A stretch of 64,000 nucleotides of DNA, taken from Escherichia coli (GTDB taxonomy: Bacteria; Pseudomonadota; Gammaproteobacteria; Enterobacterales; Enterobacteriaceae). The stretch lies in assembly GCF_045037415.1 (NCBI RefSeq), contig NZ_CP173438.1. The stretch is one strand, 5' to 3'. The translations under genes were made by a program, and so were the position numbers. Each line of letters begins with the position of its first letter. The stretch's first letter is position 1. The notes beneath the pieces are model-generated. The model did no database searches. It was not told where the DNA came from and was given only the letters and a program-made list of their open reading frames with translations. Positions 7,050-32,234 of the stretch are shown here, piece by piece.

Positions 7050-9292
<2,243 letters not shown>

Positions 9293-12567: not shown

Positions 12568-12590
12568 ACCATGATTAAAGGAAACGACTA

Positions 12591-13595
12591 ATGCCGGGAG
12601 CACCCTCATTTATTGCCCTGGACTGGGGAACGTCATCGCTTCGGGCATGGCGTTTTGGCGAATCACCAAATCCACAAGAAAAACGTGAATTCCCCTGGGG
12701 GATCATGAAATTACCCTCCCAGGCAGCAACACGTGAGGACGCTTTCCACGATACGTTTTTACGTGTCTGCGGCGACTGGCTGGCACAAACCCCATGCCCG
12801 GTACTGGCTTGCGGCATGCTCGGCAGTGCGCAAGGGTGGCAACCAGCAGCTTATTTACCTTGCCCGGTCACTCTCGAGGGTCTGGCGAAGCAGTTGACGC
12901 CTGTTATCCACCAGCAGCAGACAATGCTGCACATCATTCCTGGCGTGATTAAAGAAGGTGAAATGCCCGAAGTGATGCGTGGCGAAGAGACACAAATCTT
13001 CGGTGCTATCTCGATGGAACCGTCCCTGCAAAATGCGATCCATCAGGGTATGCCAGTGCTGATAGGCTTACCCGGCACACATGCGAAATGGGCAGTAGTT
13101 GAAAACAACACCATTACCGATTTCCGAACCTTTATGACGGGCGAGTTATTTGATGTTTTATCCCGCCATTCGATTCTCGGTGCCACCATGCATCCTGGAG
13201 ATGAACTGCACTGGGATGCCTTCACCCACGGGCTGACAGCAGCACAAGAGCATCATCAGACCGGATTATTATCGACGCTGTTTTCGACCCGTTCGCGCCT
13301 GCTGACCAGTAATCTTACGTCGTCCTCGCAGGGGGATTACCTTTCCGGATTACTGATAGGCCATGAATTATGTGGTCTGGCATCCAGTTTGCTACGTGAT
13401 TTACCCGCCACAACACCGATCGCCTTAATCGGTAGCGCAAATCTGAACAGCCGCTATTCACAAGCATTCAGCCACGTTTTTCCCGACAGACAGATACACG
13501 CCATTCCTAATGCCACTGAACAGGGATTATGGCGAATCGCCCACGCTGCCGGGTTACTGTCCACCAACGCCAGGGAATGTACCCATGCCATTTAA
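12591..13595 (+). CDS. 2-dehydro-3-deoxygalactonokinase-family sugar-acid kinase (DgoK-like)
   Basis: 334 aa; shares DgoK motifs IALDWGTS, MRGEETQ, PGTHAKW, FRTFMTGEL, LSGLLIG. Confidence 0.8.
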   Translation: MPGAPSFIALDWGTSSLRAWRFGESPNPQEKREFPWGIMKLPSQAATREDAFHDTFLRVCGDWLAQTPCPVLACGMLGSAQGWQPAAYLPCPVTLEGLAKQLTPVIHQQQTMLHIIPGVIKEGEMPEVMRGEETQIFGAISMEPSLQNAIHQGMPVLIGLPGTHAKWAVVENNTITDFRTFMTGELFDVLSRHSILGATMHPGDELHWDAFTHGLTAAQEHHQTGLLSTLFSTRSRLLTSNLTSSSQGDYLSGLLIGHELCGLASSLLRDLPATTPIALIGSANLNSRYSQAFSHVFPDRQIHAIPNATEQGLWRIAHAAGLLSTNARECTHAI

Positions 13596-14214: not shown

Positions 14215-14238
14215 CTGATAAATAAGGATATAAAAGCA

Positions 14239-15213
14239 ATGATAAAACATCTTACCTTACCGAAAAAAATGGCTGCAATGGTACTTCTTGCAGGCGCTGC
14301 CCTCAGCATTGCGCCTGTACAGGCTGCCTCCTGGCCAACCAAACAGATCGAGTTAGTCGTTCCCTACGCTGCCGGAGGCGGTACGGATCTGGTTGCCCGT
14401 GCCTTTGCTGATGCCGCCAAAAACCATTTACCCGTCAGCATCGGGGTTATCAATAAACCTGGCGGAGGCGGTGCTATCGGCCTGAGTGAAATCGCCGCTG
14501 CCCGCCCTGGCGGTTACAAAATTGGTTTAGGCACGGTTGAACTGACCACCCTTCCCAGCCTCGGAATGGTGCGTTTTAAAACCAGCGACTTTAAACCCAT
14601 TGCCCGTCTGAATGCGGATCCGGCTGCTATCACAGTCCGTGCCGATGCGCCGTGGAATAGCTATGAAGAATTTATGACTTACGCCAAAGCGAATCCCGGA
14701 AAAGTACGCATTGGTAACTCAGGCACCGGAGCTATCTGGCATCTGGCGGCAGCTGCACTGGAAGACAAAACGGGCGCAAAGTTTTCTCATGTCCCGTATG
14801 ACGGCGCAGCCCCTGCCATTACAGGCCTGTTAGGCGGGCACATTGAAGCGGTTTCCGTAAGCCCAGGAGAAGTTATCAACCATGTGAAAGGCGGCAAGCT
14901 GAAGACACTGGTAGTGATGGCGGATGAGCGAATGAAAACCATGCCTGACGTCCCGACGTTAAAAGAGAAAGGCGTTGATCTCTCCATCGGCACCTGGCGC
15001 GGCCTGATTGTGTCGCAAAAAACGCCGCAGGATGTGGTGGATGTTCTGGCAAAGGCAGCAAAAGAGACGGCTGAAGAGCCTGCATTCCAGGATGCACTAC
15101 AAAAGTTGAATCTCAACTATGCATGGCTTGACGCTGCCAGCTTCCAGACCCAAATCAGCGAACAGGAAAAGTACTTTGACGAGTTGCTGACTCGCCTGGG
15201 CCTGAAAAAATAA
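14239..15213 (+). CDS. Tripartite tricarboxylate transporter substrate-binding protein (TctC/Bug family)
   Basis: 324 aa with signal peptide (AAL-SIAPVQA) and Bug-family length and composition. Confidence 0.75.
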   Translation: MIKHLTLPKKMAAMVLLAGAALSIAPVQAASWPTKQIELVVPYAAGGGTDLVARAFADAAKNHLPVSIGVINKPGGGGAIGLSEIAAARPGGYKIGLGTVELTTLPSLGMVRFKTSDFKPIARLNADPAAITVRADAPWNSYEEFMTYAKANPGKVRIGNSGTGAIWHLAAAALEDKTGAKFSHVPYDGAAPAITGLLGGHIEAVSVSPGEVINHVKGGKLKTLVVMADERMKTMPDVPTLKEKGVDLSIGTWRGLIVSQKTPQDVVDVLAKAAKETAEEPAFQDALQKLNLNYAWLDAASFQTQISEQEKYFDELLTRLGLKK

Positions 15214-15226
15214 ACCTGAGGTACGG

Positions 15227-15736
15227 TTGATGAACACAAAACAGTCTGTTGCTCAACTCGCCGTACCGCACCGCAAGCGCCTTTCATCAACGATGGTGGT
15301 GGCGCTGTTACTTTGTGTGGTTGCTGGCGCGGTGATGATTAATGCCGCTGATTTTCCAGCAACTGCCATTGAAACGGATCCCGGTGCAAGTGCCTTCCCT
15401 ACCTTCTATGCCTGTGCCCTGATTGTGCTCGCTGTCTTGCTGGTGATACGCGATCTTTTGCAGGCAAAACCAGCCTCTTGCGCCAACGCACAGGAAAAAC
15501 CGGCATTCAGGAAAACGGCAACAGGAATTGCGGCAACCGCGTTTTATATTGTGGCGATGAGCTACTGCGGTTATCTCATTACTACTCCTGTTTTCCTCAT
15601 CGTCATTATGACGTTGATGGGCTACAGGCGATGGGTACTCACACCGGGTATTGCGCTGCTGTTAACGGCAATCCTCTGGTTGCTGTTTGTCGAAGCGTTA
15701 CAGGTGCCATTGCCTGTCGGCACATTTTTCGAATAA
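15227..15736 (+). CDS. Tripartite tricarboxylate transporter small membrane subunit (TctB-like)
   Basis: 169 aa hydrophobic 4-TM protein immediately between the TctC-like and TctA-like genes. Confidence 0.6.
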   Translation: MMNTKQSVAQLAVPHRKRLSSTMVVALLLCVVAGAVMINAADFPATAIETDPGASAFPTFYACALIVLAVLLVIRDLLQAKPASCANAQEKPAFRKTATGIAATAFYIVAMSYCGYLITTPVFLIVIMTLMGYRRWVLTPGIALLLTAILWLLFVEALQVPLPVGTFFE

Positions 15737-15748
15737 CAGGGGCCAGCA

Positions 15749-17239
15749 ATGTTTGAAAGTGAACTTTTAACTCAGGGTTTTTCGACATTACTCAATAATC
15801 CTCAGGCGCTGCTGTTTGCCACTTTTGGGGTGATGCTGGGTATTGTGATTGGCGCTCTGCCTGGTCTGACAGCGACCATGGGTGTGGCGATTTTGCTGCC
15901 TTTCACCTACGGCATGGAGCCTGTTTCTGGCTTGTTGATGATTTGCGGCGTCTTTTTTGGCGGCGTCTATGGCGGTTCTATCACCGCAATTTTGCTCAAA
16001 ATTCCCGGTACGCCTGCCGCCGCAGCCACCGCCATTGACGGATATGAGCTGACGAAGCAGGGAAAAGCAGGGCTGGCATTGAGTGCCGCCACGTTCTCTT
16101 CCTTTAGTGGCGGAACGCTCAGCATTATCGTGCTGATGTTTCTCTCTCCGGTACTTGCCAGTTGGGCGCTGAAATTTAGTGCCTCGGAGTCCTTCGCCCT
16201 GGCAACCTTCGGACTGAGCATTATTGCCAGTATTTCCGGTGAGTCGCTGATTAAGGGGCTGATTGCCGGGGTTGGCGGATTGCTGATCGCAACGATAGGC
16301 CTTGATCCAATGGGCGGTTTTCCACGGTTTACAGGTGGATTTGTGGAGCTGATGAATGTGCCATTTATCCCGGTGATGATTGGTTTATTTGCTGCTTCAG
16401 AAGCATTCCGCTCTATGGAGCAAAACCAGCAAATTCGTCAGGGGGCGAAGGTGGCTATCGGCAGTCTGTTACTGCCCTGGCAAACACTACGCCGCATCGC
16501 ATTAACCATTTTGCGCTCATCAGGATTAGGGGTTTTTATCGGCATGATCCCCGGTGCGGGGGCGGATATTGCAGCTTTTGTTGCCTATAACGAAACTCGT
16601 CGTTTCAGTAAGACACCAGAAAACTTTGGTAAGGGTGAAATTAAAGCTGTGGCCTCCTGTGAGGCAGGCGCGAATGGCTGCACCGGTGGCGCATTGTTAC
16701 CTATGCTGACGCTGGGGATCCCTGGCGATGCGGTAACCGCCATCATGCTGGGCGCGTTAACGTTACAGGGAATGCAACCAGGCCCGCTGATGTTTACCGA
16801 CCACGGCGATATGGTTTATACACTGTTTGTCGGCATGATCTTCTGTTACTTCATGCTACTAGTTCTTGGACTGCTCTCTTTGAAAGTCATCGGTAATGTG
16901 GTGAAAATTCCCGGCAATATTCTCACACCGATGATCCTCGCACTTTGTGTGGTCGGGACTTATGCGTTGAACAATAGCCTTTTTGATGTTGGCATTATGC
17001 TGATTGCAGGCGTGGTGGGCTATTTCATGCAGAAAGGAGGATATCCGGCATCACCCGTAGTGCTGGCATTGATTATGGGGCCAATGGCGGAAAGTAATTT
17101 TCGCCGTGCGCTGTCGCTTTCTGGTGGGTCACTCGACTTTCTGTATACCCGACCGATCACTCTGGCATTGCTGACTCTGGCAGCCTTTACGCTACTGACG
17201 CCAATAATCCGCAAAATAATGCGTTTACGGCGTCAATAA
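15749..17239 (+). CDS. Tripartite tricarboxylate transporter large permease (TctA family)
   Basis: 496 aa polytopic membrane protein with TctA-like glycine-rich repeats. Confidence 0.8.
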   Translation: MFESELLTQGFSTLLNNPQALLFATFGVMLGIVIGALPGLTATMGVAILLPFTYGMEPVSGLLMICGVFFGGVYGGSITAILLKIPGTPAAAATAIDGYELTKQGKAGLALSAATFSSFSGGTLSIIVLMFLSPVLASWALKFSASESFALATFGLSIIASISGESLIKGLIAGVGGLLIATIGLDPMGGFPRFTGGFVELMNVPFIPVMIGLFAASEAFRSMEQNQQIRQGAKVAIGSLLLPWQTLRRIALTILRSSGLGVFIGMIPGAGADIAAFVAYNETRRFSKTPENFGKGEIKAVASCEAGANGCTGGALLPMLTLGIPGDAVTAIMLGALTLQGMQPGPLMFTDHGDMVYTLFVGMIFCYFMLLVLGLLSLKVIGNVVKIPGNILTPMILALCVVGTYALNNSLFDVGIMLIAGVVGYFMQKGGYPASPVVLALIMGPMAESNFRRALSLSGGSLDFLYTRPITLALLTLAAFTLLTPIIRKIMRLRRQ

Positions 17240-18299: not shown

Positions 18300-19109
18300 A
18301 TGGCAACAACACAACAATCTGGATTTGCACCTGCTGCATCGCCTCTCGCTTCGACCATCGTTCAGACTCCGGACGACGCGATTGTGGCGGGCTTCACCTC
18401 TATCCCTTCACAAGGGGATAACATGCCTGCTTACCATGCCAGACCAAAGCAAAGCGATGGCCCACTGCCAGTGGTCATTGTAGTGCAGGAAATTTTTGGC
18501 GTGCATGAACATATCCGCGACATTTGTCGCCGTCTGGCGCTGGAGGGGTATCTGGCTATCGCACCTGAACTTTACTTCCGCGAAGGCGATCCGAATGATT
18601 TTGCCGATATCCCCACGTTGCTTGGCGGTCTGGTAGCAAAAGTGCCTGACTCGCAGGTGCTGGCCGATCTCGATCATGTCGCCAGTTGGGCTTCCCGCAA
18701 CGGCGGCGATGTTCATCGTTTAATGATCACCGGATTCTGCTGGGGTGGACGTATCACCTGGCTGTATGCCGCGCATAATCCACAGCTAAAAGCCGCAGTG
18801 GCGTGGTACGGCAAACTGACGGGCGATAAGTCGCTGAATTCACCGAAACAACCTGTTGATATCGCAACCGATCTTAACGCGCCGGTTCTCGGCTTATATG
18901 GCGGCCAGGATAACAGCATTCCGCAAGAGAGTGTGGAAACGATGCGCCAGGCGCTGCGGGCAGCAAACGCGAAAGCAGAGATTATCGTGTACCCGGATGC
19001 AGAGCATGCGTTCAACGCCGATTATCGTCCGAGCTATCATGCCGAGTCTGCGAAAGACGGCTGGCAGCGAATGTTGGAATGGTTTACACAGTATGGTGTT
19101 AAAAAGTAA
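18300..19109 (+). CDS. ysgA: Dienelactone hydrolase-family protein (YsgA/DlhH)
   Basis: Start at MATTQQSGF with RBS ggag; alpha/beta hydrolase with the DLH-family GFCWGG nucleophile motif. Confidence 0.85.
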   Translation: MATTQQSGFAPAASPLASTIVQTPDDAIVAGFTSIPSQGDNMPAYHARPKQSDGPLPVVIVVQEIFGVHEHIRDICRRLALEGYLAIAPELYFREGDPNDFADIPTLLGGLVAKVPDSQVLADLDHVASWASRNGGDVHRLMITGFCWGGRITWLYAAHNPQLKAAVAWYGKLTGDKSLNSPKQPVDIATDLNAPVLGLYGGQDNSIPQESVETMRQALRAANAKAEIIVYPDAEHAFNADYRPSYHAESAKDGWQRMLEWFTQYGVKK

Positions 19110-19175
19110 CGCCATAGTCGCTAAATCTGATGATTAAGCTCACACAATTTCAACGATTTTTTTAATCTCAAAACC

Positions 19176-19272
19176 ATACAGCATCAAAAAATTTGTTGCT
19201 GTATGCCACTCTTTGACTCCCTTCACATTCGTCATCACACCACCTGCTGAATGCAAAAATTTCGTTGCTGTG
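19176..19272. promoter_or_regulatory. Two related ~20-bp motifs upstream of the isochorismatase-family gene (candidate regulator binding sites)
   Basis: atacagcatcaaaaaatttgttgctgtat (perfect 8-bp inverted arms ATACAGCA/TGCTGTAT) and the related tgcaaaaatttcgttgctgtg about 50 bp downstream. Confidence 0.3.
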
Positions 19273-19365
19273 CGGCAAACTTTTTTCCTGTTTTGTGCCG
19301 CTTTTCTCCTGAATACTCGTTCTCAGAACAACTGGATCGTTTAAACATCAGACAGGAGATTTACC

Positions 19366-20034
19366 ATGACGCAATCCATTTTTCAGGCTCAACCCTTTGA
19401 ATTACCTTTTGATCCGCGCACAACTGCACTGGTCATGATCGACATGCAGCGTGACTTTGTCGAAGCCGGGGGCTTCGGTGAGGCACTGGGCAATGATGTT
19501 TCACGGGTACGCACGGCTATCGCACCATGTACAGAGGTGCTGGCAGCCGCACGTCAAAAAGGAATTATGGTTATTCATACTCGTGAAGGCCATCGTGCAG
19601 ACTTAAGCGACTGCCCGCCAGCCAAACTGACGCGCGGCGGAAAAACCTTTATTGGTGAACCAGGACCGATGGGACGCATTCTGGTCAGAGGTGAAGCAGG
19701 TCATGACATCATTCCTGAACTGTACCCGGTGGCAGGCGAACCGGTGATTGATAAGCCTGGCAAAGGCGCGTTTTATCAAACCGACTTACATCTGATTTTG
19801 CAAAACCACGGTATCAAGACGCTGATAGTTTGTGGTGTAACAACCGAAGTTTGCGTAACCACCACCGTGCGCGAAGCAAATGATCGTGGCTATGAATGCA
19901 TTATCCCGGAAGATTGTGTCGGCTCCTATTTCCCGGAATTCCAGAAATACGCCCTCGAGATGATCAAAGCACAAGGTGCCATTTTCGGTTGGGTTACTGA
20001 TTCCAAAGCCATTATTGCAGGTCTGGAAGGCTAA
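19366..20034 (+). CDS. Isochorismatase-family cysteine hydrolase (RutB / N-carbamoylsarcosine amidase / biuret hydrolase-like amidase)
   Basis: 222 aa; family triad context D (LVMIDMQRDF), K (DKPGKGAF), C (LIVCGVTTEVCV); RBS aggag upstream. Confidence 0.75.
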   Translation: MTQSIFQAQPFELPFDPRTTALVMIDMQRDFVEAGGFGEALGNDVSRVRTAIAPCTEVLAAARQKGIMVIHTREGHRADLSDCPPAKLTRGGKTFIGEPGPMGRILVRGEAGHDIIPELYPVAGEPVIDKPGKGAFYQTDLHLILQNHGIKTLIVCGVTTEVCVTTTVREANDRGYECIIPEDCVGSYFPEFQKYALEMIKAQGAIFGWVTDSKAIIAGLEG

Positions 20035-20039
20035 CGCCG

Positions 20040-20900
20040 ATGGTACAGGTTACGCTTTGCGCATCGTCGTTGGGATATCTTTTCCCGCAGGATGAAACGC
20101 AAGATTTACGTCTACATAGCGCTTTTAAACATGCGGTAAATCTGTATTCAGACGCGGGAACATTCATCACTCTGTTGTGTGCGCAAACGTATCTGAATCT
20201 CCCTGATGCTGCCAGAGTCTGGCTACCTGAATGTTGGGACTGGCGAAGAGAGATTGCCCATTCAGATCCCATTCAGTTAACCCCAGGCTTGCTGCGGACA
20301 CCTCGATTTTGTGTGGCGCTCGATAACGCAACGCTCTGGCAGTCGCCATTTGTGGGGGGAATGCTGACACTTGAGGCATTCCCTTTGGTTTTCCAGCACT
20401 ACCCAACGATGGCATCGCAACGGCTTTTATTTTGTCTGGAGCATAACGTTCAAAGCACATTGCACCTGCCGGATAGTCTCACGCACCAGGGATTAGCGAT
20501 TATGGAGCATCCAGATGCGCTGGAACGCCAGGTGCCACAACTGATCGGCTTTGGTAAAGGCTTAACGCCCGATGGAGATGACTATTTGTTGGGCTATCTG
20601 GCAGCGCTCTGGTTATGGCAACTCCCTGCACCACTTGCCGATCATCAATACCGGTTGCAGCAGGCAATTGATCAACATGCGCACAACACCACGGATATCA
20701 GTCGTCATTATCTGGAGCGTGCGCTTCAGGGACATTTTTCAGAACCGATTTGCCAGTTACTCGCACAACTGGTTGGGAGCGCATCGGCAATGACAATCGC
20801 ATCCTGTGCAGAACAGGTCATGCAATTTGGCGCAACGTCAGGAGTAGATTGCCTTGCAGGAATGCTGCATGGCTTTCGAACCCTGAACACCATGAATTGA
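20040..20900 (+). CDS. DUF2877-like protein (YahE/YlbF-like; putative carbamoyltransferase accessory subunit)
   Basis: 286 aa ORF starting 6 bp after the amidase stop. Assignment rests mainly on length and its position directly upstream of the FdrA-like gene, as in the yahEFG and fdrA-ylbEF clusters. Confidence 0.45.
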   Translation: MVQVTLCASSLGYLFPQDETQDLRLHSAFKHAVNLYSDAGTFITLLCAQTYLNLPDAARVWLPECWDWRREIAHSDPIQLTPGLLRTPRFCVALDNATLWQSPFVGGMLTLEAFPLVFQHYPTMASQRLLFCLEHNVQSTLHLPDSLTHQGLAIMEHPDALERQVPQLIGFGKGLTPDGDDYLLGYLAALWLWQLPAPLADHQYRLQQAIDQHAHNTTDISRHYLERALQGHFSEPICQLLAQLVGSASAMTIASCAEQVMQFGATSGVDCLAGMLHGFRTLNTMN

Positions 20901-20994
20901 TTTCAACCTTTTCTCCCGTAGCCCGTTTATGGGGCTACACGGGGATGCTTTGCCCGAATTTTGCTATCGGGCGGAATGAAACAGGCGTAACAGC

Positions 20995-22554
20995 ATGAAA
21001 GTTAAATATAAAGTTTTCAGTAATCTTTATCAGGACTCAGTTTCTCTGATGCAGATTTCCGCGCAAATCAGCAAGTTGCCCGGTATTCAACAGGCCTCGG
21101 TCGTCATGGGAACGCCCAATAATCTCGAACAATTGCGCGATGCGGGTCTGGGTAACGAAATCAACGCCAGTCCCAATGATTTAGTGATTGCAGTCATGGG
21201 TGAAGAAGATATTTGCAATGAAGCACTGATACTGGCCCAGCAACGTCTGACCAGCAAACCCGATGATGAAACGGATAGTGGCATTAAAACACCGGAAAAG
21301 GTCAGCCTGGAAATGGCACTGGAAGCCGAACCCGAAGCCAACCTGGCACTCATTTCTGTACCGGGAGACTACGCCGCCGCCGAAGCAATTAAAGCGTTAA
21401 ACCTCGGAATGAACGTGATGATGTTCAGCGATAACGTCAGTATCGTGCAGGAAAAATCCATCAAAACGCTTGCCCGAGAACGTCAGCGCATCGTAATGGG
21501 ACCTGACTGTGGAACCGCCATTGTTAACGGCATTCCGTTAGGCTTCGCTAATGTGGTGAAACGCGGAGCAATTGGTGTTATTGGCGCGTCAGGCACCGGG
21601 CTACAGGAAGTGACTTGCCGAATCGACCAGCTCGGAGCGGGTATTTCTCAGGCGTTGGGAACAGGCGGACATGATCTCAGTAAAGAGATTGGTGGAATAT
21701 CGATGCTCTTCGCTTTAGATGCGCTGGCGCAAGACGATGAAACTCGCGTAATTGTGCTGATTTCAAAACCGCCTTCACCGATCGTTGCCCGGACTATTCT
21801 GGAGCGCGCCGAGGCTTGTGGAAAACCCGTGGTGGTGAATTTCCTCGGGGCGAATCCGCATGATCTGGCACGTCCCAATATCACTGCCGCCACCACACTT
21901 GCCAGCGCCGCCGACATCGCTGTGGCGTTACTGAATGCTCAGCCACTTCCGGCTGTCGAAACCGATGTACCCTGCGACGATCTCACAATGTTACAAAACG
22001 CCTGCCAGCGCCTGCCAGCCCATCGCCAGGCGATACGCGGTGTTTTCGCCGGAGGAACCTTCTGCTACGAAGCGCAACTTATCTGCCAACAAAAGGGATT
22101 CAGCGCAGCTTCCAATACGCCAGTTGCGGGTAATCGTGCTCTGGCAAATATCTGGCAAAGCGAAGATCACACGTTGATCGATATGGGCGACGATGATTTC
22201 ACCCGTGGCAAACCGCATCCAATGATCGACCCGACTCTGCGCAATCAACGTCTGCTCAACGAACTCAACGACTCACACACTGCCGTCGTGTTATTCGACC
22301 TGGTACTTGGTTATGGCGCTTCCACGACGCCTGCCAGCGAATTACTGGACCAACTTTCACACATCGACATGAATAACGCTCCGTTGCTGATTGCGCACGT
22401 TTGCGGAACGGAAGCTGATCCGCAAATACGCAGTCAGCAGATAAGCGCACTACAAAATGCAGGGGTCATCATCGCCAGCAGCAATGCACAGGCGGCGCTA
22501 TGGGCCAGCACCGTTGCACAGACTCAGTTGCAGAAAAAGGGGCTAAACGCATGA
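20995..22554 (+). CDS. FdrA-family protein (succinyl-CoA-synthetase-like fold)
   Basis: 519 aa; motifs QDSVSLM, NLALISVPGDYAA, NVMMFSDNV, MGPDCGT, GVIGASGTG, KPHPMIDPTLRNQ shared with E. coli FdrA/YahF. Confidence 0.7.
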   Translation: MKVKYKVFSNLYQDSVSLMQISAQISKLPGIQQASVVMGTPNNLEQLRDAGLGNEINASPNDLVIAVMGEEDICNEALILAQQRLTSKPDDETDSGIKTPEKVSLEMALEAEPEANLALISVPGDYAAAEAIKALNLGMNVMMFSDNVSIVQEKSIKTLARERQRIVMGPDCGTAIVNGIPLGFANVVKRGAIGVIGASGTGLQEVTCRIDQLGAGISQALGTGGHDLSKEIGGISMLFALDALAQDDETRVIVLISKPPSPIVARTILERAEACGKPVVVNFLGANPHDLARPNITAATTLASAADIAVALLNAQPLPAVETDVPCDDLTMLQNACQRLPAHRQAIRGVFAGGTFCYEAQLICQQKGFSAASNTPVAGNRALANIWQSEDHTLIDMGDDDFTRGKPHPMIDPTLRNQRLLNELNDSHTAVVLFDLVLGYGASTTPASELLDQLSHIDMNNAPLLIAHVCGTEADPQIRSQQISALQNAGVIIASSNAQAALWASTVAQTQLQKKGLNA

Positions 22555-23975
22555 ATACCTTATTTAATCAGCCTTTGAAGGTTGTGAACGCGGGACTACA
22601 CAGTTTTGCTGACAATATTCAACATGCCGGGGGAAGCGCAATTGCACTCAACTGGCAGCCACCAGCACAAGGCGATATTGACGCTGGATTGGATCTGGCA
22701 TCGTTGCTACGTCATCCCCTGGTAGAAAATGCCAACCAAATCGCCATGGCACGTTATCTCGAAGCACAGCCCGTGCTGGTGGATGTCATGCTTGCTAAAG
22801 AGGCCATTCCAGCAATGGCTGAACAAAAACGTATTTTGCACTCTGGCCCGCCGATTGCCTGGGAAGAGATGTGTGGTCCGGTAAAAGGGGCGATTATTGG
22901 TGCCATGCTGTACGAAGGTTGGGCCACCAGCCAGCAAGACGCTGAAAACCAGATAAACGCAGGCGAAATCGACCTTGCCCCTTGTCATCATTATCACGCG
23001 GTTGGCCCAATGGCAGGCATCATCAGCCCGTCGATGCCGTTATGGGTGGTAGAAAACAAAACCAACGGCCACCGTACTTTTAGCAATTTCAATGAAGGTC
23101 TGGGTAAGGTTCTCCGTTTTGGCGCCAATAACGATGAAGTTCTCAATCGTCTGGCCTGGATGCGCGATGAACTGACGCCGGCAATGAAAGCAGCAATCGC
23201 ACAACACGGCGAGCTGGAACTCAAGCCATTAATGGCGCAGGCGCTGCATATGGGGGATGAAGTTCATAACCGCAATGCTGCCGCTACCGGTTTGCTGATT
23301 AAGCGCCTGCTCCCGGCATTGCTGGCCTGCTCTCTTCCACAGGAACATATCCAGCGCGTCGTGGCATTTATCACCGGTAACGATCACTTCTTCCTCAATC
23401 TGTCGATGGCCGCCTGTAAAGCAATGATGGATGCCGCCGCCAATGTACCGTTCAGTTCAATGGTTACGGTGATGGCGCGTAACGGGGTGAATTTTGGTAT
23501 TCGGATTTCCGGTACTGGCGATCGCTGGTTCCAGGCTCCTGCCAATGCCGTTGAAGGTCTGTTCTTCCCCGGATTTGGCGTTGACGACGCTGCTGCTGAC
23601 CTGGGTGATAGCGCAATTACTGAAACCGCAGGTGTGGGTGGCTTCGCGATGGCGTCGTCTCCGGCGATCGTCAAATTTGTGGGAGGCACCCCTGCCGATG
23701 CCACCAATAACAGCCGTCGGATGCAAGCCATCACCCTCGGCGGTAACCCCGCATTTACACTTCCAGCCCTCAATTTTGCCCCCACCGCAGCAGGGATTGA
23801 TGCGCGTAAAGTGACCGATCGCGGCATTTTACCGGTCATCAATACGGGTATCGCCCACAAACAAGCGGGGGTCGGGCAAATTGGTGCCGGGATCACCACT
23901 GCGCCGATGGCCTGTTTTGTCGCCGCTGTACGTGCACTGGCGGAGATCGTCGCAAAGGAGAACCATCATGGTTAA
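22551..23975 (+). CDS. DUF1116-family protein (YlbE/YahG-like)
   Basis: Start ATG overlaps the FdrA-like stop as ATGA (translational coupling); ~474 aa, the size of YlbE/YahG. Confidence 0.6.
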   Translation: MNTLFNQPLKVVNAGLHSFADNIQHAGGSAIALNWQPPAQGDIDAGLDLASLLRHPLVENANQIAMARYLEAQPVLVDVMLAKEAIPAMAEQKRILHSGPPIAWEEMCGPVKGAIIGAMLYEGWATSQQDAENQINAGEIDLAPCHHYHAVGPMAGIISPSMPLWVVENKTNGHRTFSNFNEGLGKVLRFGANNDEVLNRLAWMRDELTPAMKAAIAQHGELELKPLMAQALHMGDEVHNRNAAATGLLIKRLLPALLACSLPQEHIQRVVAFITGNDHFFLNLSMAACKAMMDAAANVPFSSMVTVMARNGVNFGIRISGTGDRWFQAPANAVEGLFFPGFGVDDAAADLGDSAITETAGVGGFAMASSPAIVKFVGGTPADATNNSRRMQAITLGGNPAFTLPALNFAPTAAGIDARKVTDRGILPVINTGIAHKQAGVGQIGAGITTAPMACFVAAVRALAEIVAKENHHG

Positions 23976-24924
23976 GCCACTGGCTGTCGTCGCGGTTGGC
24001 GGCAATGCGCTCATTCAGGACGAGCAACGCAATAGTATTCCCGATCAATATGTTGCAGTGATGGAAAGCGTGCAGCATATCGTTGATATGGTTGAAGCCG
24101 GATGGGACCTGGTGCTAACCCACGGTAATGGCCCGCAGGTGGGCTTTATTCTGCGCCGCTCTGAACTCGCCAGTAACGAAGTTTCTCCGGTTCCACTTGA
24201 TTACGCCGTGGGTGATACACAAGGTGCAATTGGCTACATGTTCCAGAAAGCGCTGCATAACGAACTCGCTCGCCGTGGCATAAACAAACCGGTAATTGCC
24301 CTGGTGACACAAACGCGAGTCAGCCCACATGACGATGCTTTCGCCAGCCCCAGTAAACCGATTGGCGCGTTTCTCGATGAAGCAACGGCCCAACAACGCC
24401 AACAACAACTCGGCTGGACGCTGATGGAGGACGCCGGGCGTGGTTGGCGGCGTACAGTTCCCTCTCCTGCACCACTGGAAATTATTGAGCACGACACCAT
24501 CGCTCACCTGGTGCGCCAGGGATATCTGGTTATTGCCTGCGGCGGCGGCGGTATTCCGGTGGTGCGAGACGGGCAACAACTGAAAGGTGTAGAAGCCGTG
24601 ATCGATAAAGATCTGGCCTCCGCGCTGCTCGCCAGTCAGTTAGGCGCAGATCTGCTGGTGATCCCCACCGGTGTAGAAAAAGTGGCGATTAACTTTGGTA
24701 CACCACAACAACAGTGGCTCGACGCTATCAGCGTTGCCGAAGCGCAAACGCTGTTGCGGGAAGGTCAGTTTGGTGTCGGCAGTATGCAACCCAAAGTGGA
24801 AGCCATTGTTGATTTCATCAATGCCAGCCAGCAACAAGGCAAACAGGCCAGCGGCCTGATTACTTCACCGCAAACCATAAAAGCAGCCCTGGCGCATCAG
24901 AGCGGTACATGGATAACCCTTTAA
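23968..24924 (+). CDS. Carbamate kinase
   Basis: Start at MVKPLAVVAVGGNAL with RBS aaggag; carbamate-kinase motifs THGNGPQVG, CGGGGIPV, VIDKD, GSMQPK; overlaps the upstream stop by 8 bp. Confidence 0.8.
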   Translation: MVKPLAVVAVGGNALIQDEQRNSIPDQYVAVMESVQHIVDMVEAGWDLVLTHGNGPQVGFILRRSELASNEVSPVPLDYAVGDTQGAIGYMFQKALHNELARRGINKPVIALVTQTRVSPHDDAFASPSKPIGAFLDEATAQQRQQQLGWTLMEDAGRGWRRTVPSPAPLEIIEHDTIAHLVRQGYLVIACGGGGIPVVRDGQQLKGVEAVIDKDLASALLASQLGADLLVIPTGVEKVAINFGTPQQQWLDAISVAEAQTLLREGQFGVGSMQPKVEAIVDFINASQQQGKQASGLITSPQTIKAALAHQSGTWITL

Positions 24925-24940
24925 TTCTCTGGAGAACACA

Positions 24941-25330
24941 ATGACTACAACGCTTTTAGCCGTTAACGGAACGCTGATGCGCGGCCTGGAACTCAACCCA
25001 AATATGCAAAAAGCGGGCGGTATTTTTGTCCGTGAAGACCGAACTGACGCCCATTACCGGTTGTGGAGTATTAATGATCGCCATCCGGGAATGATTCGCG
25101 TGAATGAAGGAGGAACACACGTCGACGTAGAAATTTGGCAATTACCGCTGGCCAGTTTTGCCGCTCTGTTAATGAGCGAACCCGCTGGGCTGGCAATTGG
25201 CAAAATCAAACTTGCCGATGGTAGCGAAGTGCTGGGCGTACTGGCAGAAAACTGGCTGACCGAAGGCCAACGGGAAATTACAGAACTGGGTAGCTGGCGT
25301 AAATACACCGGGCATTTTCATACTGTGTAA
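24941..25330 (+). CDS. Gamma-glutamylcyclotransferase-like (AIG2/GGCT fold) small protein
   Basis: 129 aa, N-terminal LLAVNGTLMRG resembles the GGCT-fold YGSL-type motif; function inferred only weakly. Confidence 0.4.
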   Translation: MTTTLLAVNGTLMRGLELNPNMQKAGGIFVREDRTDAHYRLWSINDRHPGMIRVNEGGTHVDVEIWQLPLASFAALLMSEPAGLAIGKIKLADGSEVLGVLAENWLTEGQREITELGSWRKYTGHFHTV

Positions 25331-25355
25331 CGCGCATTTATAAAGGGAACATACT

Positions 25356-26579
25356 ATGCGTAAAAAAGAAGAGAATCTGAATACGGCATCAGGATTGCGT
25401 ATTGCCATGATTTTGCTGGGTATTGCCGTCACACCTGTGCTGTTGTCATCCTCAAGCCTCGGCAATCAACTTTCCAGCGGCAGTTTAATTAGCGTCGTAT
25501 TGTTAGGCGGCGTCATTCTGACCTTACTTTCAGCCATCACCATTAGCGTGGGAGAAAAAGCCCGCCTGCCAACGTATGGCATTGTGAAATATTCGTTTGG
25601 CGAAAAAGGGGCCATCGCCATTAACATTTTGATGGCGATAAGTCTGTTCGGCTGGATTGCCGTTACCGCCAATATGTTTGGTCATTCGGTACATGACTTA
25701 CTGGCTCAACATGGACTGGAAGTTCCACTGGCACTGTTAGTGGCGGCTGGCTGTGTCATTTTTGTCGCCTCTACGGCATTTGGCTTTGCCGTTCTGGGAA
25801 AAATTGCCCAGGTTGCCGTGCCGGTTATCGCGCTGGTGCTGTGTTACATCCTCTATGTGGCAACCCATACCGAAGTGGCAGTACCAGCGGCGATTGTGGA
25901 GATGAATACAGGTGTCGCCGTTTCCACCGTTGTTGGCACCATTATTGTGCTGGTTGCCACACTGCCTGATTTCGGTAGTTTTGTGCATAACCGCAAACAT
26001 GCGCTGATTGCCGCAGGCGTGACGTTTCTGGTTGCCTACCCTCTGCTCTACTGGGCGGGTGCAACGCCGAGCGCCATTAGTGGTCAGGGATCTTTACTGG
26101 GTGCGATGGCGGTATTCGGTGCAGTTCTGCCTGCGGCGCTGTTGTTGATTTTCGCCTGCGTCACCGGTAACGCGGGCAATATGTTCCAGGGCACGCTGGT
26201 GGTTTCCACACTGCTTACCCGCTTTCCCAAATGGCAGATTACCGTGGCGCTGGGTATCCTTTCCGCCATCGTAGGCAGTATGGATATTATGGCGTGGTTT
26301 ATTCCGTTTCTGCTGTTCCTGGGTATCGCCACGCCACCCGTTGCCGGAATTTATATCGCTGACTTTTTCCTTTATCGCCGTAATGGCTATCAAGAGTCAG
26401 TGTTAGCCCAGGAGTCACAGATTAAAGTGCTGACATTCGCAGCATGGATCATAGGCGCAGCGGTTGGCTTTATGACCGTAAAAGGCTTATTCACCCTGAC
26501 GACGATCCCTTCGGTAGACTCGATTCTGGTGGCATGTATCGCGTATGCGATTCTCAGTCGGGCAAGTCAACACCGCTAA
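25356..26579 (+). CDS. NCS1-family nucleobase/ureide permease (cytosine permease CodB-like)
   Basis: 407 aa, ~12 TM segments, size and composition like CodB/allantoin-type permeases. Confidence 0.65.
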   Translation: MRKKEENLNTASGLRIAMILLGIAVTPVLLSSSSLGNQLSSGSLISVVLLGGVILTLLSAITISVGEKARLPTYGIVKYSFGEKGAIAINILMAISLFGWIAVTANMFGHSVHDLLAQHGLEVPLALLVAAGCVIFVASTAFGFAVLGKIAQVAVPVIALVLCYILYVATHTEVAVPAAIVEMNTGVAVSTVVGTIIVLVATLPDFGSFVHNRKHALIAAGVTFLVAYPLLYWAGATPSAISGQGSLLGAMAVFGAVLPAALLLIFACVTGNAGNMFQGTLVVSTLLTRFPKWQITVALGILSAIVGSMDIMAWFIPFLLFLGIATPPVAGIYIADFFLYRRNGYQESVLAQESQIKVLTFAAWIIGAAVGFMTVKGLFTLTTIPSVDSILVACIAYAILSRASQHR

Positions 26580-26656
26580 TTCCTGGGTATACTCAGGCAA
26601 TGATTACGGCTGAATCTGGAGAGATTCAGCCACTTTACCACTGACCAGGGAGCCTT

Positions 26657-27562
26657 ATGTTCATCTCAGACGAAACGCTTCGTGTTATTCATCTGGTCGC
26701 CAGACACCAGAGCATTACCACCGCAGCCGAGCAGTTAAATAAAGTCCCTTCCGCCATCAGTTACACCATCAAGAAAGCGGAAGAGAGCCTGGGCGTTGAA
26801 CTGTTCATTCGTAAGGGACGCTATATTGAATTATCGCCAGCGGGAAGTTACTTCATCGAACATAGCAAAACTATTCTTGGCGACCTGGAAGCATTAAAGC
26901 GCAACACAGTGCTGATTCACGATGGTATTGAGCGTGAACTGACAATTGCGGTAAACAATATTATTCCTGGTGATTTGCTGGTGGCATTTATTCGAGATTT
27001 TGAACGGCAATTCACATCAACAACACTGACGGTAGATCTTGAGGTATACAACGGCTGCTGGGATGCGCTGTACAGTAAGCGTGCTGATCTGGTCTACGGT
27101 GCTCCTCATGCAGTACCAAGCAGTGAAGGCATCATTAGCGAACCGGTCGGACAAATGGAATGGGATTTTGTCGTCAGCCCACTCCACCCACTGGCAGCGA
27201 AGCGGCATCCATTAGAAAACAGTGAATTGCGTCATTATCCAGCGGTTTGTATCCGCGATACCTCCGTTAACTTCCCCCCGATGCAAGCCTGGTTGTTGGA
27301 AGGACAAAAACCCATTTTTGTTCCTGACTTCGCTACGGCAATCGCCTTAATAGAACAAAACGTCGGTATTGGTTATATTCCACATCATCTGGCATTACCG
27401 TTATTGAACAGCGGTAAATTGCTTAAAAAGCCAATGCGCGAACATAAACACGCCACCAAGTTATTTCTTGCCGCTCGTTCCGATGGTATGGGCAAAGCCT
27501 GTCAGTGGTGCATAGAATATTTAAGAAACCAGCAATTAATGACACGATTTGTATTTAATTGA
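26657..27562 (+). CDS. LysR-family transcriptional regulator
   Basis: 301 aa; N-terminal HTH (TAAEQLNKVPSAISYTIKKAEESLGVELF) plus LysR substrate-binding domain. Confidence 0.8.
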   Translation: MFISDETLRVIHLVARHQSITTAAEQLNKVPSAISYTIKKAEESLGVELFIRKGRYIELSPAGSYFIEHSKTILGDLEALKRNTVLIHDGIERELTIAVNNIIPGDLLVAFIRDFERQFTSTTLTVDLEVYNGCWDALYSKRADLVYGAPHAVPSSEGIISEPVGQMEWDFVVSPLHPLAAKRHPLENSELRHYPAVCIRDTSVNFPPMQAWLLEGQKPIFVPDFATAIALIEQNVGIGYIPHHLALPLLNSGKLLKKPMREHKHATKLFLAARSDGMGKACQWCIEYLRNQQLMTRFVFN

Positions 27563-27689
27563 CAATACAATGATAAAAATATAAGTCTTGCTTTAATTAG
27601 AGCGCCCGTTTAAATTATTTTTGTGCAGTTGACGTAATTCATGAAAATTAACCGGTCTGTTAATCATTACGTTCACTGCACACCTTCAT

Positions 27690-27761
27690 TTTTTCACACC
27701 TATCCACGCCTGAAAACTATGTTATAATCAGCACTTTCTGTCAGAATGAAATTTACTAATT
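27690..27761 (+). promoter_or_regulatory. Putative promoter of the RpiR-family gene (extended -10 TGTTATAAT)
   Basis: tgttataat about 35 bp upstream of the ATG in an AT-rich intergenic region. Confidence 0.3.
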
Positions 27762-28607
27762 ATGAATAACATAACCGTAAAAAGTCTGATTCAAAGCAAT
27801 TACCCTACACTGCATCAGGCGGAAAAAAAGGTCGCTGACTATATTCTTAGCCACGCACATGAAGTCGTGAACTATAGTGTCACTGAACTATCAGAAAAAA
27901 GCCATGCCAGTGAAGCGACTATCGTACGCACCTGTAAGAAATTAGGTTATCAGGGTTATTACCATTTAAAAATTGCATTAGCAAAAGAAGTCATTAATCC
28001 TGACAATAGCTATCCTGAAAATACCGACTTCAGCGATATAACATCTTTGGCAACCTTTTTATTAAAAAAACAGGCCGAAGATTTAATACAATCAACGCAA
28101 TTTTTTAATGCCGACGTGCTTGAGTCCATTCTCAAACTACTTGCTAATTGCGATACTATTTTCTTTTTTGCTGCCGGAAATTCAAACCCACTGGCCGTTT
28201 ATAGTGCTTATAAATTCAGCCAACTCGGATTAAAAACCGTTGTTCACGTCAGCCCGGAAATGCAAATTAATGCGGCATATTCTATGGGGAAACGCGACCT
28301 GGCGATTGGTATTTCTAACTCTGGCAGCACCAACTTAATGGTCGATATCTTTAAAGTGGTGAAAGAGCGCGGTGCCAAATCCGTTTGTATCACTAACTAT
28401 ATTAAATCTCCGTTATCAAAACTCTCCACCCATCAACTCAATACCGCGGTCAGCGATAAAATCTTCTTTGAAGCCTTCGACTCCACTCGCGTTCCGGCAA
28501 TGGGCGTTATTGATATGCTGGTGCTGTTGTTTATGTATAAAAACAAGGCGCATTACGAGAAATACCGCACCCGTGAAGAGTTTCTTGGCTCCCGTTTCAA
28601 GGGGTAA
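27762..28607 (+). CDS. RpiR/MurR-family transcriptional regulator (HTH_6 + SIS domain)
   Basis: 281 aa; N-terminal RpiR-type HTH (LSEKSHASEATIVRTCKKLGYQGY) and C-terminal SIS sugar-phosphate-binding domain. Confidence 0.8.
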   Translation: MNNITVKSLIQSNYPTLHQAEKKVADYILSHAHEVVNYSVTELSEKSHASEATIVRTCKKLGYQGYYHLKIALAKEVINPDNSYPENTDFSDITSLATFLLKKQAEDLIQSTQFFNADVLESILKLLANCDTIFFFAAGNSNPLAVYSAYKFSQLGLKTVVHVSPEMQINAAYSMGKRDLAIGISNSGSTNLMVDIFKVVKERGAKSVCITNYIKSPLSKLSTHQLNTAVSDKIFFEAFDSTRVPAMGVIDMLVLLFMYKNKAHYEKYRTREEFLGSRFKG

Positions 28608-28629
28608 AAGGTCATCCTTTCACCCCTTG
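28598..28629. terminator. Hairpin between convergent RpiR-family and transketolase genes
   Basis: caaggggtaaaagg-tcat-cctttcaccccttg inverted repeat; no clean U-tract on either strand. Confidence 0.35.
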
Positions 28630-28636
28630 TGCAGGT

Positions 28637-30634
28637 TTAGCTGTTCAGTAGCTCACGCGCCTGCGCCAGGACATTTTCCGGCGTAAAACCAAAGTGTTTG
28701 AACAACACATTCGCCGGAGCAGACTCACCAAAGCTCGTCATGCCGATCACTTTACCGTCCAGGCCCACGTAGCGTTCCCAGAATCCGGCGATGCTGGCTT
28801 CTACCGCCAGACGTTTGCGTACAGCTTTTGGCAATACCGACTCTTTGTACGCCGCATCCTGATTATCGAAACGCTCGGTACACGGCATGGAAACCACGCG
28901 AACTTTACGCCCTTCTTCCGTTAACGCTTTTGCGGCGCTGACCACTAACTCAATCTCTGAACCCGCAGAAATGAGGATCATCTCAGGCTGACCGTCACAA
29001 TCACTCAGTACATAACCACCACGCGCAATCTCTGCCAACTGTGCAGCGGTGCGCGGCTGTTGCGCCAGAGGTTGGCGCGTTAATACCAACGACGTTGGGC
29101 CATCTTTGCGCTCAATCGCCTGTTGCCAGGCCACCGCCACTTCCACCTGATCGCAACCGCGCCAGGTTTCCATATTCGGCGTCAGACGCAGCGACGCCAG
29201 TTGCTCAACGGGCTGATGTGTCGGGCCGTCTTCGCCCAGGCCGATGGTATCGTGGGTATAAACAAACACCGAGCGGATCTTCATCAGCGCCGCCATGCGC
29301 AGTGCATTACGCGCATATTCCATAAACATCAGGAAAGTACCGCCGTAAGGGATAAACCCACCATGCAGCGCAAGACCGTTCATGATGGCCGACATACCAA
29401 ATTCACGCACGCCATAGGAGATGTAATTCCCCGCCGGATTTTCTCCGGTGAAATCAACCGATTTCTGATGGCGAGTCAGGTTAGAGGGCGACAAGTCCGC
29501 CGAGCCGCCCATCAGTTCCGGCAGCATATCTGCGAAGTGATTGAGGCATTTCTGGCTAACCTGACGGGTTGCCAGCGCCGCCGGATGGGATTGCAGATCG
29601 TGCACATATTTCTGCATATTCTCGACCCAGCCAGCAGGCAAATCACCCTTCATGCGACGAGTAAACTCCGCCGCCAGTTCCGGCCACTGCTTCGCGTAGT
29701 CGGCAAACAGTGCATCCCATTCCTGTTGAACCTGCGCGCCTTTCTCGGTCGCATCCCATTCGGCATAAATTTCACCAGGAATTTCGAAAGGGGCATACGG
29801 CCATTGCAGACGTTCACGCACCAGCGCCACTTCATCTGCACCCAGCGCCGAGCCGTGGCAATCGTGGCTGTTGGCTTTATTTGGCGAACCAAAACCGATA
29901 ATCGTTTTGCAGCACAGCAGACTGGGCTTATCCGTGACGCTTTTCGCTTCACGCACCGCAGCATCTACCGCTTCTGGATCGTGACCATCAACGCCTTCAA
30001 TGACATGCCAGCCGTAGGCACGAAAACGGGCAGCCGTATCTTCAGCGAACCAGCCTTCTACGTGACCATCGATCGAAATACCGTTATCGTCCCAGATAGC
30101 AATCAGATTGCCGAGCTTCAGCGTTCCTGCAAGACCACAGGCCTCGTGGGAGATCCCTTCCATCAGACAGCCATCACCCAAAAATAACCATGTGTGATGA
30201 TCAACAATATTAAAGCCCGGTTTGTTAAATTCTGCCGCCAGCGCCTTCTCCGCAATCGCCATCCCCACCGCATTAGCTACGCCCTGCCCCAACGGGCCGG
30301 TGGTGGTTTCAACACCCGGCGTATAACCATATTCTGGATGACCCGGCGTGCGGGAGTGGAGCTGACGAAAGTCGCGAATATCATCCATCGACAGGTCGTA
30401 GCCTGTAAGATGCAGCAAAGCGTAAATCAACATGGAGCCGTGACCGTTCGACTGAACATAGCGGTCGCGGTTAAACCACTGCGGATTTTTTGGGTTATGA
30501 CGCAGGTGACGACGCCAGACCACTTCGGCAATATCCGCCATCCCCATCGGCGCGCCCGGATGACCGGAGTTCGCTTTCTGGATCGCATCAACACTTAACA
30601 TTCGGATGGCATTAGCCAGTAATTGTGAATTCAT
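28637..30634 (-). CDS. Transketolase (full-length, additional paralogue of TktA/TktB)
   Basis: 665 aa; collinear with TktA over the whole length ([15 protein letters not shown], ThDP-binding [20 protein letters not shown]) but clearly divergent from both TktA and TktB as I recall them. Confidence 0.9.
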
Positions 30635-30684
30635 ACTTCAGCTCTCTCTGTCTGGCGGGCTGAAACCAGCCCGCTAATCTCGAA

Positions 30685-32193: not shown

Positions 32194-32234
32194 TTTTATT
32201 CTCCTGTAGGGTATCGAGCAAATAACGGCGACGA

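Follow-up and report, generated by a model that had tools for sequence, protein, structure and literature searches.

The oxamate carbamoyltransferase encoded by three genes, allF, allG and allH, is known to feed the catabolic carbamate kinase AllK (PMC11326118, PMC9843812). His-tagged AllF brings down untagged AllG in similar amounts. AllH is bound loosely and in sub-stoichiometric quantity, and tagging of AllH only results in the loss of both AllF and AllG (PMC11326118). The present analysis deals with a related locus found in a 64,000-nucleotide stretch of Escherichia coli DNA (contig NZ_CP173438.1, assembly GCF_045037415.1), referred to as the window. An accessory island located between ysgA and metE (19366-27562, plus strand) contains an operon in which an FdrA-like gene, a DUF1116 gene and a carbamate kinase gene are chained by overlaps of their coding sequences. 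Sequence comparison identifies the core of this operon as paralogous (at about 40-49% identity) to the AllFGH oxamate carbamoyltransferase and the AllK carbamate kinase. The account that we consider likely, taken as a whole, is that the overlapping junctions are genuine, of a standard type and labile in evolution, that they probably entail partial translational coupling, that the FdrA and DUF1116 proteins form a physical unit, and that the operon is an AllFGH/AllK paralogue.

The operon of the window and the K-12 allFGHK genes (fdrA-ylbE-ylbF-ybcF) combine the same four families, in the same direction and with very short junctions. An allFGHK-like chemistry would be expected, in which an N-carbamoyl compound is phosphorolysed to carbamoyl phosphate, itself converted to ATP, and a carbamoyltransferase complex activity of the FdrA, DUF1116 and DUF2877 proteins is predicted from the paralogue. 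The two operons nevertheless differ in several respects. Identity amounts to about 40% for FdrA and 48% for DUF1116 compared to YlbE/AllG. The gene order is H-F-G-K in the window and F-G-H-K in allFGHK, the successive junctions measure +94/-4/-8 versus +9/+10/-4 bp (overlaps being negative), and the FdrA|DUF1116 boundary lies about 45 residues earlier in the window. Whereas allFGHK is found in the context of allECD, the window operon stands outside the allantoin regulon and is linked to a TrtA-like hydrolase, a protein made of the allophanate-hydrolase C-terminal domain (AH_C), an NCS1 permease and a LysR regulator. The low identity and the ysgA/metE context therefore designate a paralogue, and oxalurate should not be assumed to be its substrate. 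The uncharacterised K-12 paralogue yahEFG-yahI displays the same DUF2877-FdrA-DUF1116-then-kinase order as the window, with 42-49% identity (46% for YahG) and junctions of -11 and -1, and YahG keeps the window-type N-terminal segment. Its kinase gene yahI is however found 421 bp away, across yahH, and its partner enzyme is the amidohydrolase YahJ instead of a cysteine hydrolase, with neither an AH_C gene nor a permease.

A first-pass annotation of the window had reported an ATGA stop/start overlap between the FdrA-like and DUF1116 genes, a kinase start located 8 bp within the 3' end of DUF1116, and an 11-bp overlap in a DgoK-like/DgoA-like pair belonging to a separate accessory operon (Table 1). 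The three observations are correct and apparent in the sequence itself. Around the overlaps, 8.3 kb match the chromosome of E. coli SK1144 at 100% identity, the window coordinates correspond 1:1 to those of the annotated record, and the NCBI Prokaryotic Genome Annotation Pipeline (PGAP) gives the same coordinates for all three overlaps in that chromosome. The K-12 dgoK and dgoA genes, which encode sequential enzymes, overlap as well, by 17 bp.

Table 1. Features of the overlapping junctions and of the accessory island, in window coordinates.
Feature	Coordinates	Strand	Remarks
ATGA stop/start overlap, FdrA-like/DUF1116	22551..22554	+	'gcATGAatacc': DUF1116 ATG 22551-22553, FdrA-like TGA 22552-22554
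8-bp overlap, DUF1116/kinase	23968..23975	+	'ccatcATGGTTAAgcc': kinase ATG 23968-23970, DUF1116 TAA 23973-23975
SD-like AAGGGG in the 3' end of the fdrA-like gene	22537..22542	+	8 nt before DUF1116 ATG
SD AAGGAG in the 3' end of the DUF1116 gene	23955..23960	+	7 nt before kinase ATG
11-bp overlap, DgoK-like (12591-13595)/DgoA-like (13585-14214)	13585..13595	+	'acccATGccatttAAtacg': DgoA-like ATG 13585, DgoK-like TAA 13593-13595
FdrA/AllF-like gene, 519 aa	20995..22554	+	Pfam CoA_binding and Ligase_CoA; NCBIfam PRK06091 496.5 (cutoff 433)
AllG-like (DUF1116) gene, 474 aa	22551..23975	+	Pfam PF06545 329.6 bits (cutoff 27)
Carbamate kinase gene, 318 aa	23968..24924	+	TIGR00746 arcC 366.2 (cutoff 358.25); PRK12352 377.6
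AllH-like (DUF2877) gene	20040..20900	+	Pfam PF11392 95.6 bits (cutoff 25); PGAP 'DUF2877 domain-containing protein'
Spacer, DUF2877/fdrA-like	20901..20994	+	94 bp; two hairpins GTAGCCC/GGGCTAC and GCCCGA/TCGGGC
Predicted TrtA-like cysteine hydrolase, isochorismatase family	19366..20034	+	First operon gene; Pfam Isochorismatase 165.6 bits
Stand-alone AH_C protein, 129 aa	24941..25330	+	Pfam PF21986 141.6 bits
NCS1-family permease, annotated 'cytosine permease'	25356..26579	+	Pfam Transp_cyt_pur
LysR-type regulator, island end	26657..27562	+	Pfam HTH_1 and LysR_substrate

Overlaps of this kind could be annotation artefacts, the true starts lying elsewhere and the genes not overlapping at all. 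Other start codons do exist in the form of an ATG at 22500, of TTG and GTG codons at positions 9 and 12 of DUF1116, and of a TTG at 13603. The N-termini however are conserved from the first residue. The DUF1116 pattern M-N-x-L-F-x-Q-x-L-x-V-x-N-x-G-L is found from residue 1 onwards in YahG and in orthologs sharing 59-97% identity, which come from Enterobacterales, Burkholderiales, Neisseriales and mycobacteria, among others. Further evidence was obtained from a set of 80 loci, taken from one-genome-per-species contigs with a DUF1116 alignment, in which the homologues of eight window proteins were located. In seven loci (L011, L041, L018, L020, L033, L040 and L030), including those of Silvimonas, Budvicia, Cupriavidus and Sutterella, an in-frame stop is present 1-6 codons before the homologous DUF1116 ATG, and the same holds for the kinase ATG in four loci (L041, L007, L011 and L026); a longer protein is therefore impossible there. 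Lineages devoid of overlap (e.g. Burkholderia, +10) encode the same DUF1116 N-terminus, so that the FdrA reading frame does not account for its conservation. The N-terminus of the kinase, MVKPLAVVAVGGNAL, is conserved and canonical, and NCBIfam profile alignments begin at residue 3 of the kinase and at residue 4 of the DgoA-like aldolase (PRK09140). An artefact is consequently most improbable, and the gene starts of the accessory operon are well supported.

The alternative starts were also considered individually and rejected. The upstream ATG 22500 would yield a 491-aa open reading frame whose extension is not present in homologues and whose orthologous counterparts are interrupted by stops just upstream of the ATG. 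Conserved N-terminal residues of DUF1116 would be deleted upon initiation at TTG codon 9 or GTG codon 12. The first downstream in-frame start of the kinase, GTG codon 31, would remove the GGNAL motif, and family-profile positions of the DgoA-like protein would be lost from TTG 13603, the start that would abolish its overlap. Downstream starts, which the first-pass annotation had named as the outcome that would contradict it, are thus at odds with the conserved N-termini and with these motif and profile losses.

The overlaps themselves are ordinary. In the PGAP-annotated window, 8 out of 46 co-directional adjacent pairs overlap (8 out of 23 when only pairs less than 30 bp apart are counted), namely ubiB/ubiJ (-4), dgoK-like/dgoA-like (-11), fdrA-like/DUF1116 (-4), DUF1116/kinase (-8), yigB/xerC (-1), xerC/yigA (-4), yigA/dapF (-4) and hemC/hemD (-4). 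Several of them code for unrelated proteins (e.g. xerC/yigA/dapF). In most groups of prokaryotes, overlaps concern about 15% of the co-directional pairs (PMC6728339); in E. coli, the spacings -4, -1 and -8 rank in this order of frequency and 707 of the 2987 unidirectional pairs (about 24%) are spaced by -8 to +6 (PMC10666635). The overlaps of the window are not above background and represent the commonest type of bacterial operon junction. The first-pass annotation had taken them as an argument for a complex, a role that they can fulfil only weakly: subunits of heteromeric complexes make up 30.4% of the E. coli pairs spaced by -8 to +10 and 6.8% of those more than 20 nt apart (PMC10666635), so that an overlap lifts the odds of a complex several-fold and still leaves it the less probable outcome. 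Taken alone, the overlaps mean little, as they are the default junction in operons and were already visible in public annotation.

Conservation of the junctions was evaluated in the same set of loci, the start codons being set by a heuristic of our own that retains the start nearest to the aligned window N-terminus, with a bonus for a Shine-Dalgarno (SD) motif. The FdrA to DUF1116 junction is an overlap in 31 of 69 loci (-4 in 22, -1 in five, -8 in three and -11 in one) and lies within -8 to +10 in 45 of them. For the DUF1116 to kinase junction, 21 of 48 loci overlap (-4 in 18, -8 in two and -1 in one) and 32 lie within the same range. The two junctions measure -4 and -8, respectively, in E. 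coli, on both chromosome and plasmid, -4 and -4 in the nearest orthologs from Edwardsiella and Serratia, +11 and -4 in Budvicia, and +10 and +18 or +19 in Burkholderia and Caballeronia. With the exception of one Amphibacillus locus, the 8-bp DUF1116/kinase overlap is restricted to the E. coli lineage. The overlaps are hence not conserved as such in homologous clusters, a check that the first-pass annotation had proposed, since fewer than half of the loci overlap at either junction and both the K-12 paralogues and the close orthologs differ. Gene adjacency, gene order and short spacing are conserved, and the exact overlap is evolutionarily labile.

The spacer separating the DUF2877 gene from the fdrA-like gene behaves differently, with a length of 33-146 bp in the orthologs from Enterobacterales and Burkholderiales and a -4 overlap in many distant loci. 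In the window it folds with a z-score of -1.66, 9 out of 200 shuffled sequences folding equally well. It aligns poorly between genera (mean column identity of 37%), and hairpins occur at similar places in Edwardsiella and Budvicia. The fdrA-like ATG lacks a good SD motif upstream. The spacer could play a role in processing, stability or attenuation. An Rfam scan of the operon returned only two sub-threshold matches (E 0.053 and 0.76) and assigned the spacer to no Rfam family.

A physical unit of FdrA and DUF1116 is very probable, on the grounds of AllF/AllG co-purification, of FdrA adjacency and of a shifted gene boundary, and not of the overlap. An FdrA homologue is found in 75 of the 80 DUF1116-bearing loci and directly upstream, with a measurable junction, in 66. 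The 519-aa FdrA-like protein of the window aligns only to residues 11-492 of the 555-aa K-12 FdrA (40% identity), and the stretch 511-544 of K-12 FdrA finds its homologue in residues 9-42 of DUF1116 from the window (BLASTP E 1e-5). The NCBIfam FdrA model likewise matches DUF1116 residues 6-42 with its positions 508-544 (E 5.7e-5). The K-12 YlbE protein does not possess this N-terminal segment, whereas YahG does. A segment of some 35-45 residues is thus, as judged from these alignments, the N-terminus of DUF1116 here and, in the all operon of K-12, the C-terminus of FdrA, the boundary having shifted between paralogues. At the DNA level, the corresponding regions are 22551-22680 in the window and 7211-7312 in the K-12 locus (L004), at the 3' end of fdrA. 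The tail of one protein being the head of its neighbour elsewhere is what would be expected of two polypeptides acting as one unit. Fusions of the FdrA and DUF1116 genes or of the DUF1116 and kinase genes were searched for among the 80 loci and none was found.

The first-pass annotation had gone further and proposed that the three proteins are made in fixed stoichiometry, as a multi-subunit enzyme feeding carbamate kinase. The published AllFGH enzyme feeding AllK (PMC11326118) agrees with the second half of this proposal, and the FdrA/DUF1116 partnership stands on the evidence given above. The trio linked by the overlaps is nevertheless not FdrA/DUF1116/DUF2877: the chain omits DUF2877, which lies beyond the 94-bp spacer, and includes the kinase, which is the next enzyme and not a known subunit. 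The chain is therefore not a map of the three-subunit enzyme, and fixed stoichiometry of the three proteins finds no support. The FdrA/DUF1116 pair, and not the proposed trio, behaves as a conserved unit, and the migrating boundary provides sequence-level support for a complex.

The overlap chain might still reflect a larger assembly including the kinase, in which FdrA-like, DUF1116 and kinase proteins would be made together and carbamoyl phosphate channelled. Carbamoyl phosphate is chemically labile, which would favour such an arrangement. The tightness of the two junctions is alike (32 of 48 loci for DUF1116 to kinase and 45 of 69 for FdrA to DUF1116 within -8 to +10), 48 of the examined loci have the kinase immediately after DUF1116, and fusions of the kinase to AH_C show that it has gained covalent partners in the pathway. 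The K-12 operons are however organised otherwise, as the allFGHK kinase follows allH instead of allG and that of yahEFG-I is 421 bp away. The AllFGH enzyme was purified and active without AllK (PMC11326118), none of the 80 loci has a kinase fused to FdrA or DUF1116, and sequential enzymes that form no complex often overlap (dgoK/dgoA, hemC/hemD). We regard an assembly including the kinase as improbable and retain the FdrA/DUF1116 unit.

With respect to expression, the terminating ribosome would reinitiate on the next gene at such compact junctions, and the SD motifs lying within the upstream gene would aid reinitiation. Four out of five native E. coli -4 pairs tested were found to be coupled by termination-reinitiation (PMC6728339) and coupling is lost at spacings above about 20 nt (PMC6728339, PMC10666635). 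The window pairs match the -4/-1/-8 systems described in these studies in co-directionality, in the ATGA arrangement, in the 8-nt overlap and in the internal SD motifs. Dependence of downstream on upstream translation was measured in those systems (Huber et al. 2019, 2023). The plasmid-borne variant of the island (L002) displays AAGGAG where the chromosome has AAGGGG. The overlaps leave no room for a promoter or a terminator, and a scan of 19000-27900 for consensus promoters and terminators returned matches at or below the level of shuffled controls. Since an overlap combined with an internal SD motif is a configuration with demonstrated reinitiation in E. coli, partial coupling is reasonable to infer, and the FdrA-like, DUF1116 and kinase genes are probably coupled in this partial manner.

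A number of points weigh against this account. Both DUF1116 and the kinase have an SD motif of their own, the kinase AAGGAG at 7 nt being a strong one, and de novo initiation could dominate, as it does at bioB/bioF, an uncoupled -4 pair (PMC6728339). The junction folds (-99 to +30) are no more stable than shuffled sequences (z 0.19, 0.49 and -0.46) and therefore give no sign of an SD occlusion enforcing coupling. The coupling is, moreover, deduced from nucleotide data. Junction distances in distant loci may err by a few codons owing to the heuristic starts, and the homology at the shifted boundary is based on a short match of 34 residues. Coupling alone does not fix a 1:1 ratio either.

Some of these points would fit another explanation, in which the overlaps are neutral by-products of stop and start turnover, each gene is initiated from its own SD motif and the amounts of protein are set by initiation rates. 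The SD motifs are indeed well spaced before both downstream genes, junctions drift among close orthologs, the C-terminal tails of DUF1116 vary in length and sequence, no special RNA structure is seen at the junctions, bioB/bioF is uncoupled in spite of its -4 spacing (PMC6728339) and unrelated genes of the window overlap too. Neutrality is less easily reconciled with the coupling of four out of the five native -4 pairs (PMC6728339) and with the occurrence of -8 to +10 spacings in about two-thirds of the 69 and of the 48 loci, compared to the roughly 24% of E. coli pairs found at -8 to +6 (PMC10666635), which suggests that tight spacing is under selection. We consider purely neutral overlaps unlikely and keep partial coupling as the preferred explanation.

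The first gene of the operon encodes a hydrolase whose best solved relative is the Herbaspirillum TrtA enzyme (6XIX/6XJE; 271 bits, 58% identity). Scores are lower for BiuH (231-235 bits, 53% identity) and RutB (105-113 bits), and the hydrolase falls under the cutoff of the NCBIfam BiuH equivalog NF050097 (276.4 for a cutoff of 370). Residues D, K, C, K and Q occupy the positions aligned with the catalytic Asp-Lys-Cys triad and with the substrate-binding Lys132 and Gln202. Six positions are known to separate TrtA from BiuH (PMC7948467). The hydrolase is of the TrtA type at all six (F35, N41, A134, E160, Y187 and I205), the corresponding BiuH residues being Y, Y, S, D, T and V (6AZO). The gene is thus predicted to be of the TrtA (triuret hydrolase) type. 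The assignment as a RutB or pyrimidine-related enzyme (PMC12928451) was considered and rejected, RutB scoring far below TrtA and BiuH.

The same association is widespread. Among 36 hydrolases found beside FdrA-DUF1116-kinase in other loci from many phyla, 35 carry the TrtA signature or one close to it, the sole exception, of BiuH type, being a Nitrospira locus where the gene is several kb away. The kinase is also present in 34 of the 35 loci with such a hydrolase. The kinase and AH_C, which E. coli encodes in two genes with 16 bp between them (23968-25330), are fused into proteins of about 450 aa in Mycolicibacterium (L013:7434-8798) and in a metagenome-assembled genome of Burkholderiales (L037:7422-8765). 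The mycobacterial operon is composed of hydrolase, FdrA, DUF1116 and kinase::AH_C genes joined by -4 overlaps, no DUF2877 being detected. No biuH or amidase-type atzF gene is annotated in the 64-kb window, which contains only the stand-alone AH_C domain. The operon shares the TrtA signature and the AH_C domain with the triuret/biuret pathway TrtA-(TrtB)-BiuH-AtzF (PMC7948467), but displays an AllFGH-like transferase and a carbamate kinase in place of BiuH and of the amidase-domain AtzF. A collocation of trtA/biuH with allFGHK and codB was described in 2025 in comammox and archaeal ammonia oxidisers and read as two separate, neighbouring pathways (PMC12625717). This grouping, in Nitrospira and in ammonia-oxidising archaea, is similar to that of the window, NCS1 permease included.

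A tentative scheme is that the operon constitutes a phosphorolytic, ATP-yielding route for triuret-derived ureides and not a second oxalurate system; we see it as possible, though not as the favoured outcome. The TrtA-like hydrolase would produce carboxybiuret, and the AllHFG-like enzyme would act on carboxybiuret and/or allophanate, both close analogues of oxalurate (H2N-CO-NH-CO-X), and move their terminal carbamoyl group to phosphate. The kinase would then turn carbamoyl phosphate into ATP, AH_C would handle the N-carboxy leaving group, and the route would replace the hydrolytic steps of BiuH and AtzF. Tight FdrA to DUF1116 to kinase coupling would match the kinase to the transferase and thereby prevent the loss of labile carbamoyl phosphate.

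The island was found in 1554 of 5426 complete E. coli genomes (about 29%) and at 129 plasmid places. Conjugative plasmids (IncK2/Z and others) from E. coli and Klebsiella bear a variant that is 90-96% identical. The copy on pLH50-c-A (L002) is flanked by IS66 and IS3 elements, a copy of the astA toxin gene and a truncated LysR gene. A comparative paper of 2026 lists the island, in the absence of experiments, as 'GR 29' of extraintestinal pathogenic E. coli strains (PMC12928451), and a literature search for experiments on the island or on yahEFG returned none. In the window, the hydrolase and DUF2877 genes are separated by 5 bp. The NCS1 permease scores 145.7 against the NCBIfam cytosine permease model, under its cutoff of 326. 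In Serratia, Edwardsiella, Paraburkholderia and Silvimonas, the cluster has kept its LysR regulator, and DUF1116 orthologs of 72-88% identity are present in many Proteobacteria.

Other accessory loci are present in the window. The DgoK-like/DgoA-like pair belongs to a second insertion (11800-17239), located between rmuC and udp, which encodes an IclR regulator, the DgoK-like kinase, the DgoA-like aldolase and TctCBA, a tripartite tricarboxylate transporter; it looks like an operon for acidic-sugar uptake and catabolism. No NCBIfam model matched the DgoK-like kinase at E 0.001. A third block (27762-32792) adjoins the island and consists of an RpiR-family regulator on the plus strand followed by minus-strand genes for a second transketolase, a ptsG-like phosphotransferase system IIBC component and the 6-phospho-3-hexuloisomerase hxlB. 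Finally, metR (35510-36463, plus strand) and bioP (36351-37250, minus strand) are annotated as convergent genes with a 113-bp overlap, which is unusually long for a convergent pair.

The partnership of a TrtA-type hydrolase with AH_C offers a testable substrate hypothesis (triuret, carboxybiuret, allophanate) for a cluster present in nearly one-third of the sequenced E. coli. If the proposed route were true, these urease-negative and often extraintestinal bacteria would gain access to a product of uric-acid oxidation whose presence in human urine has been reported.

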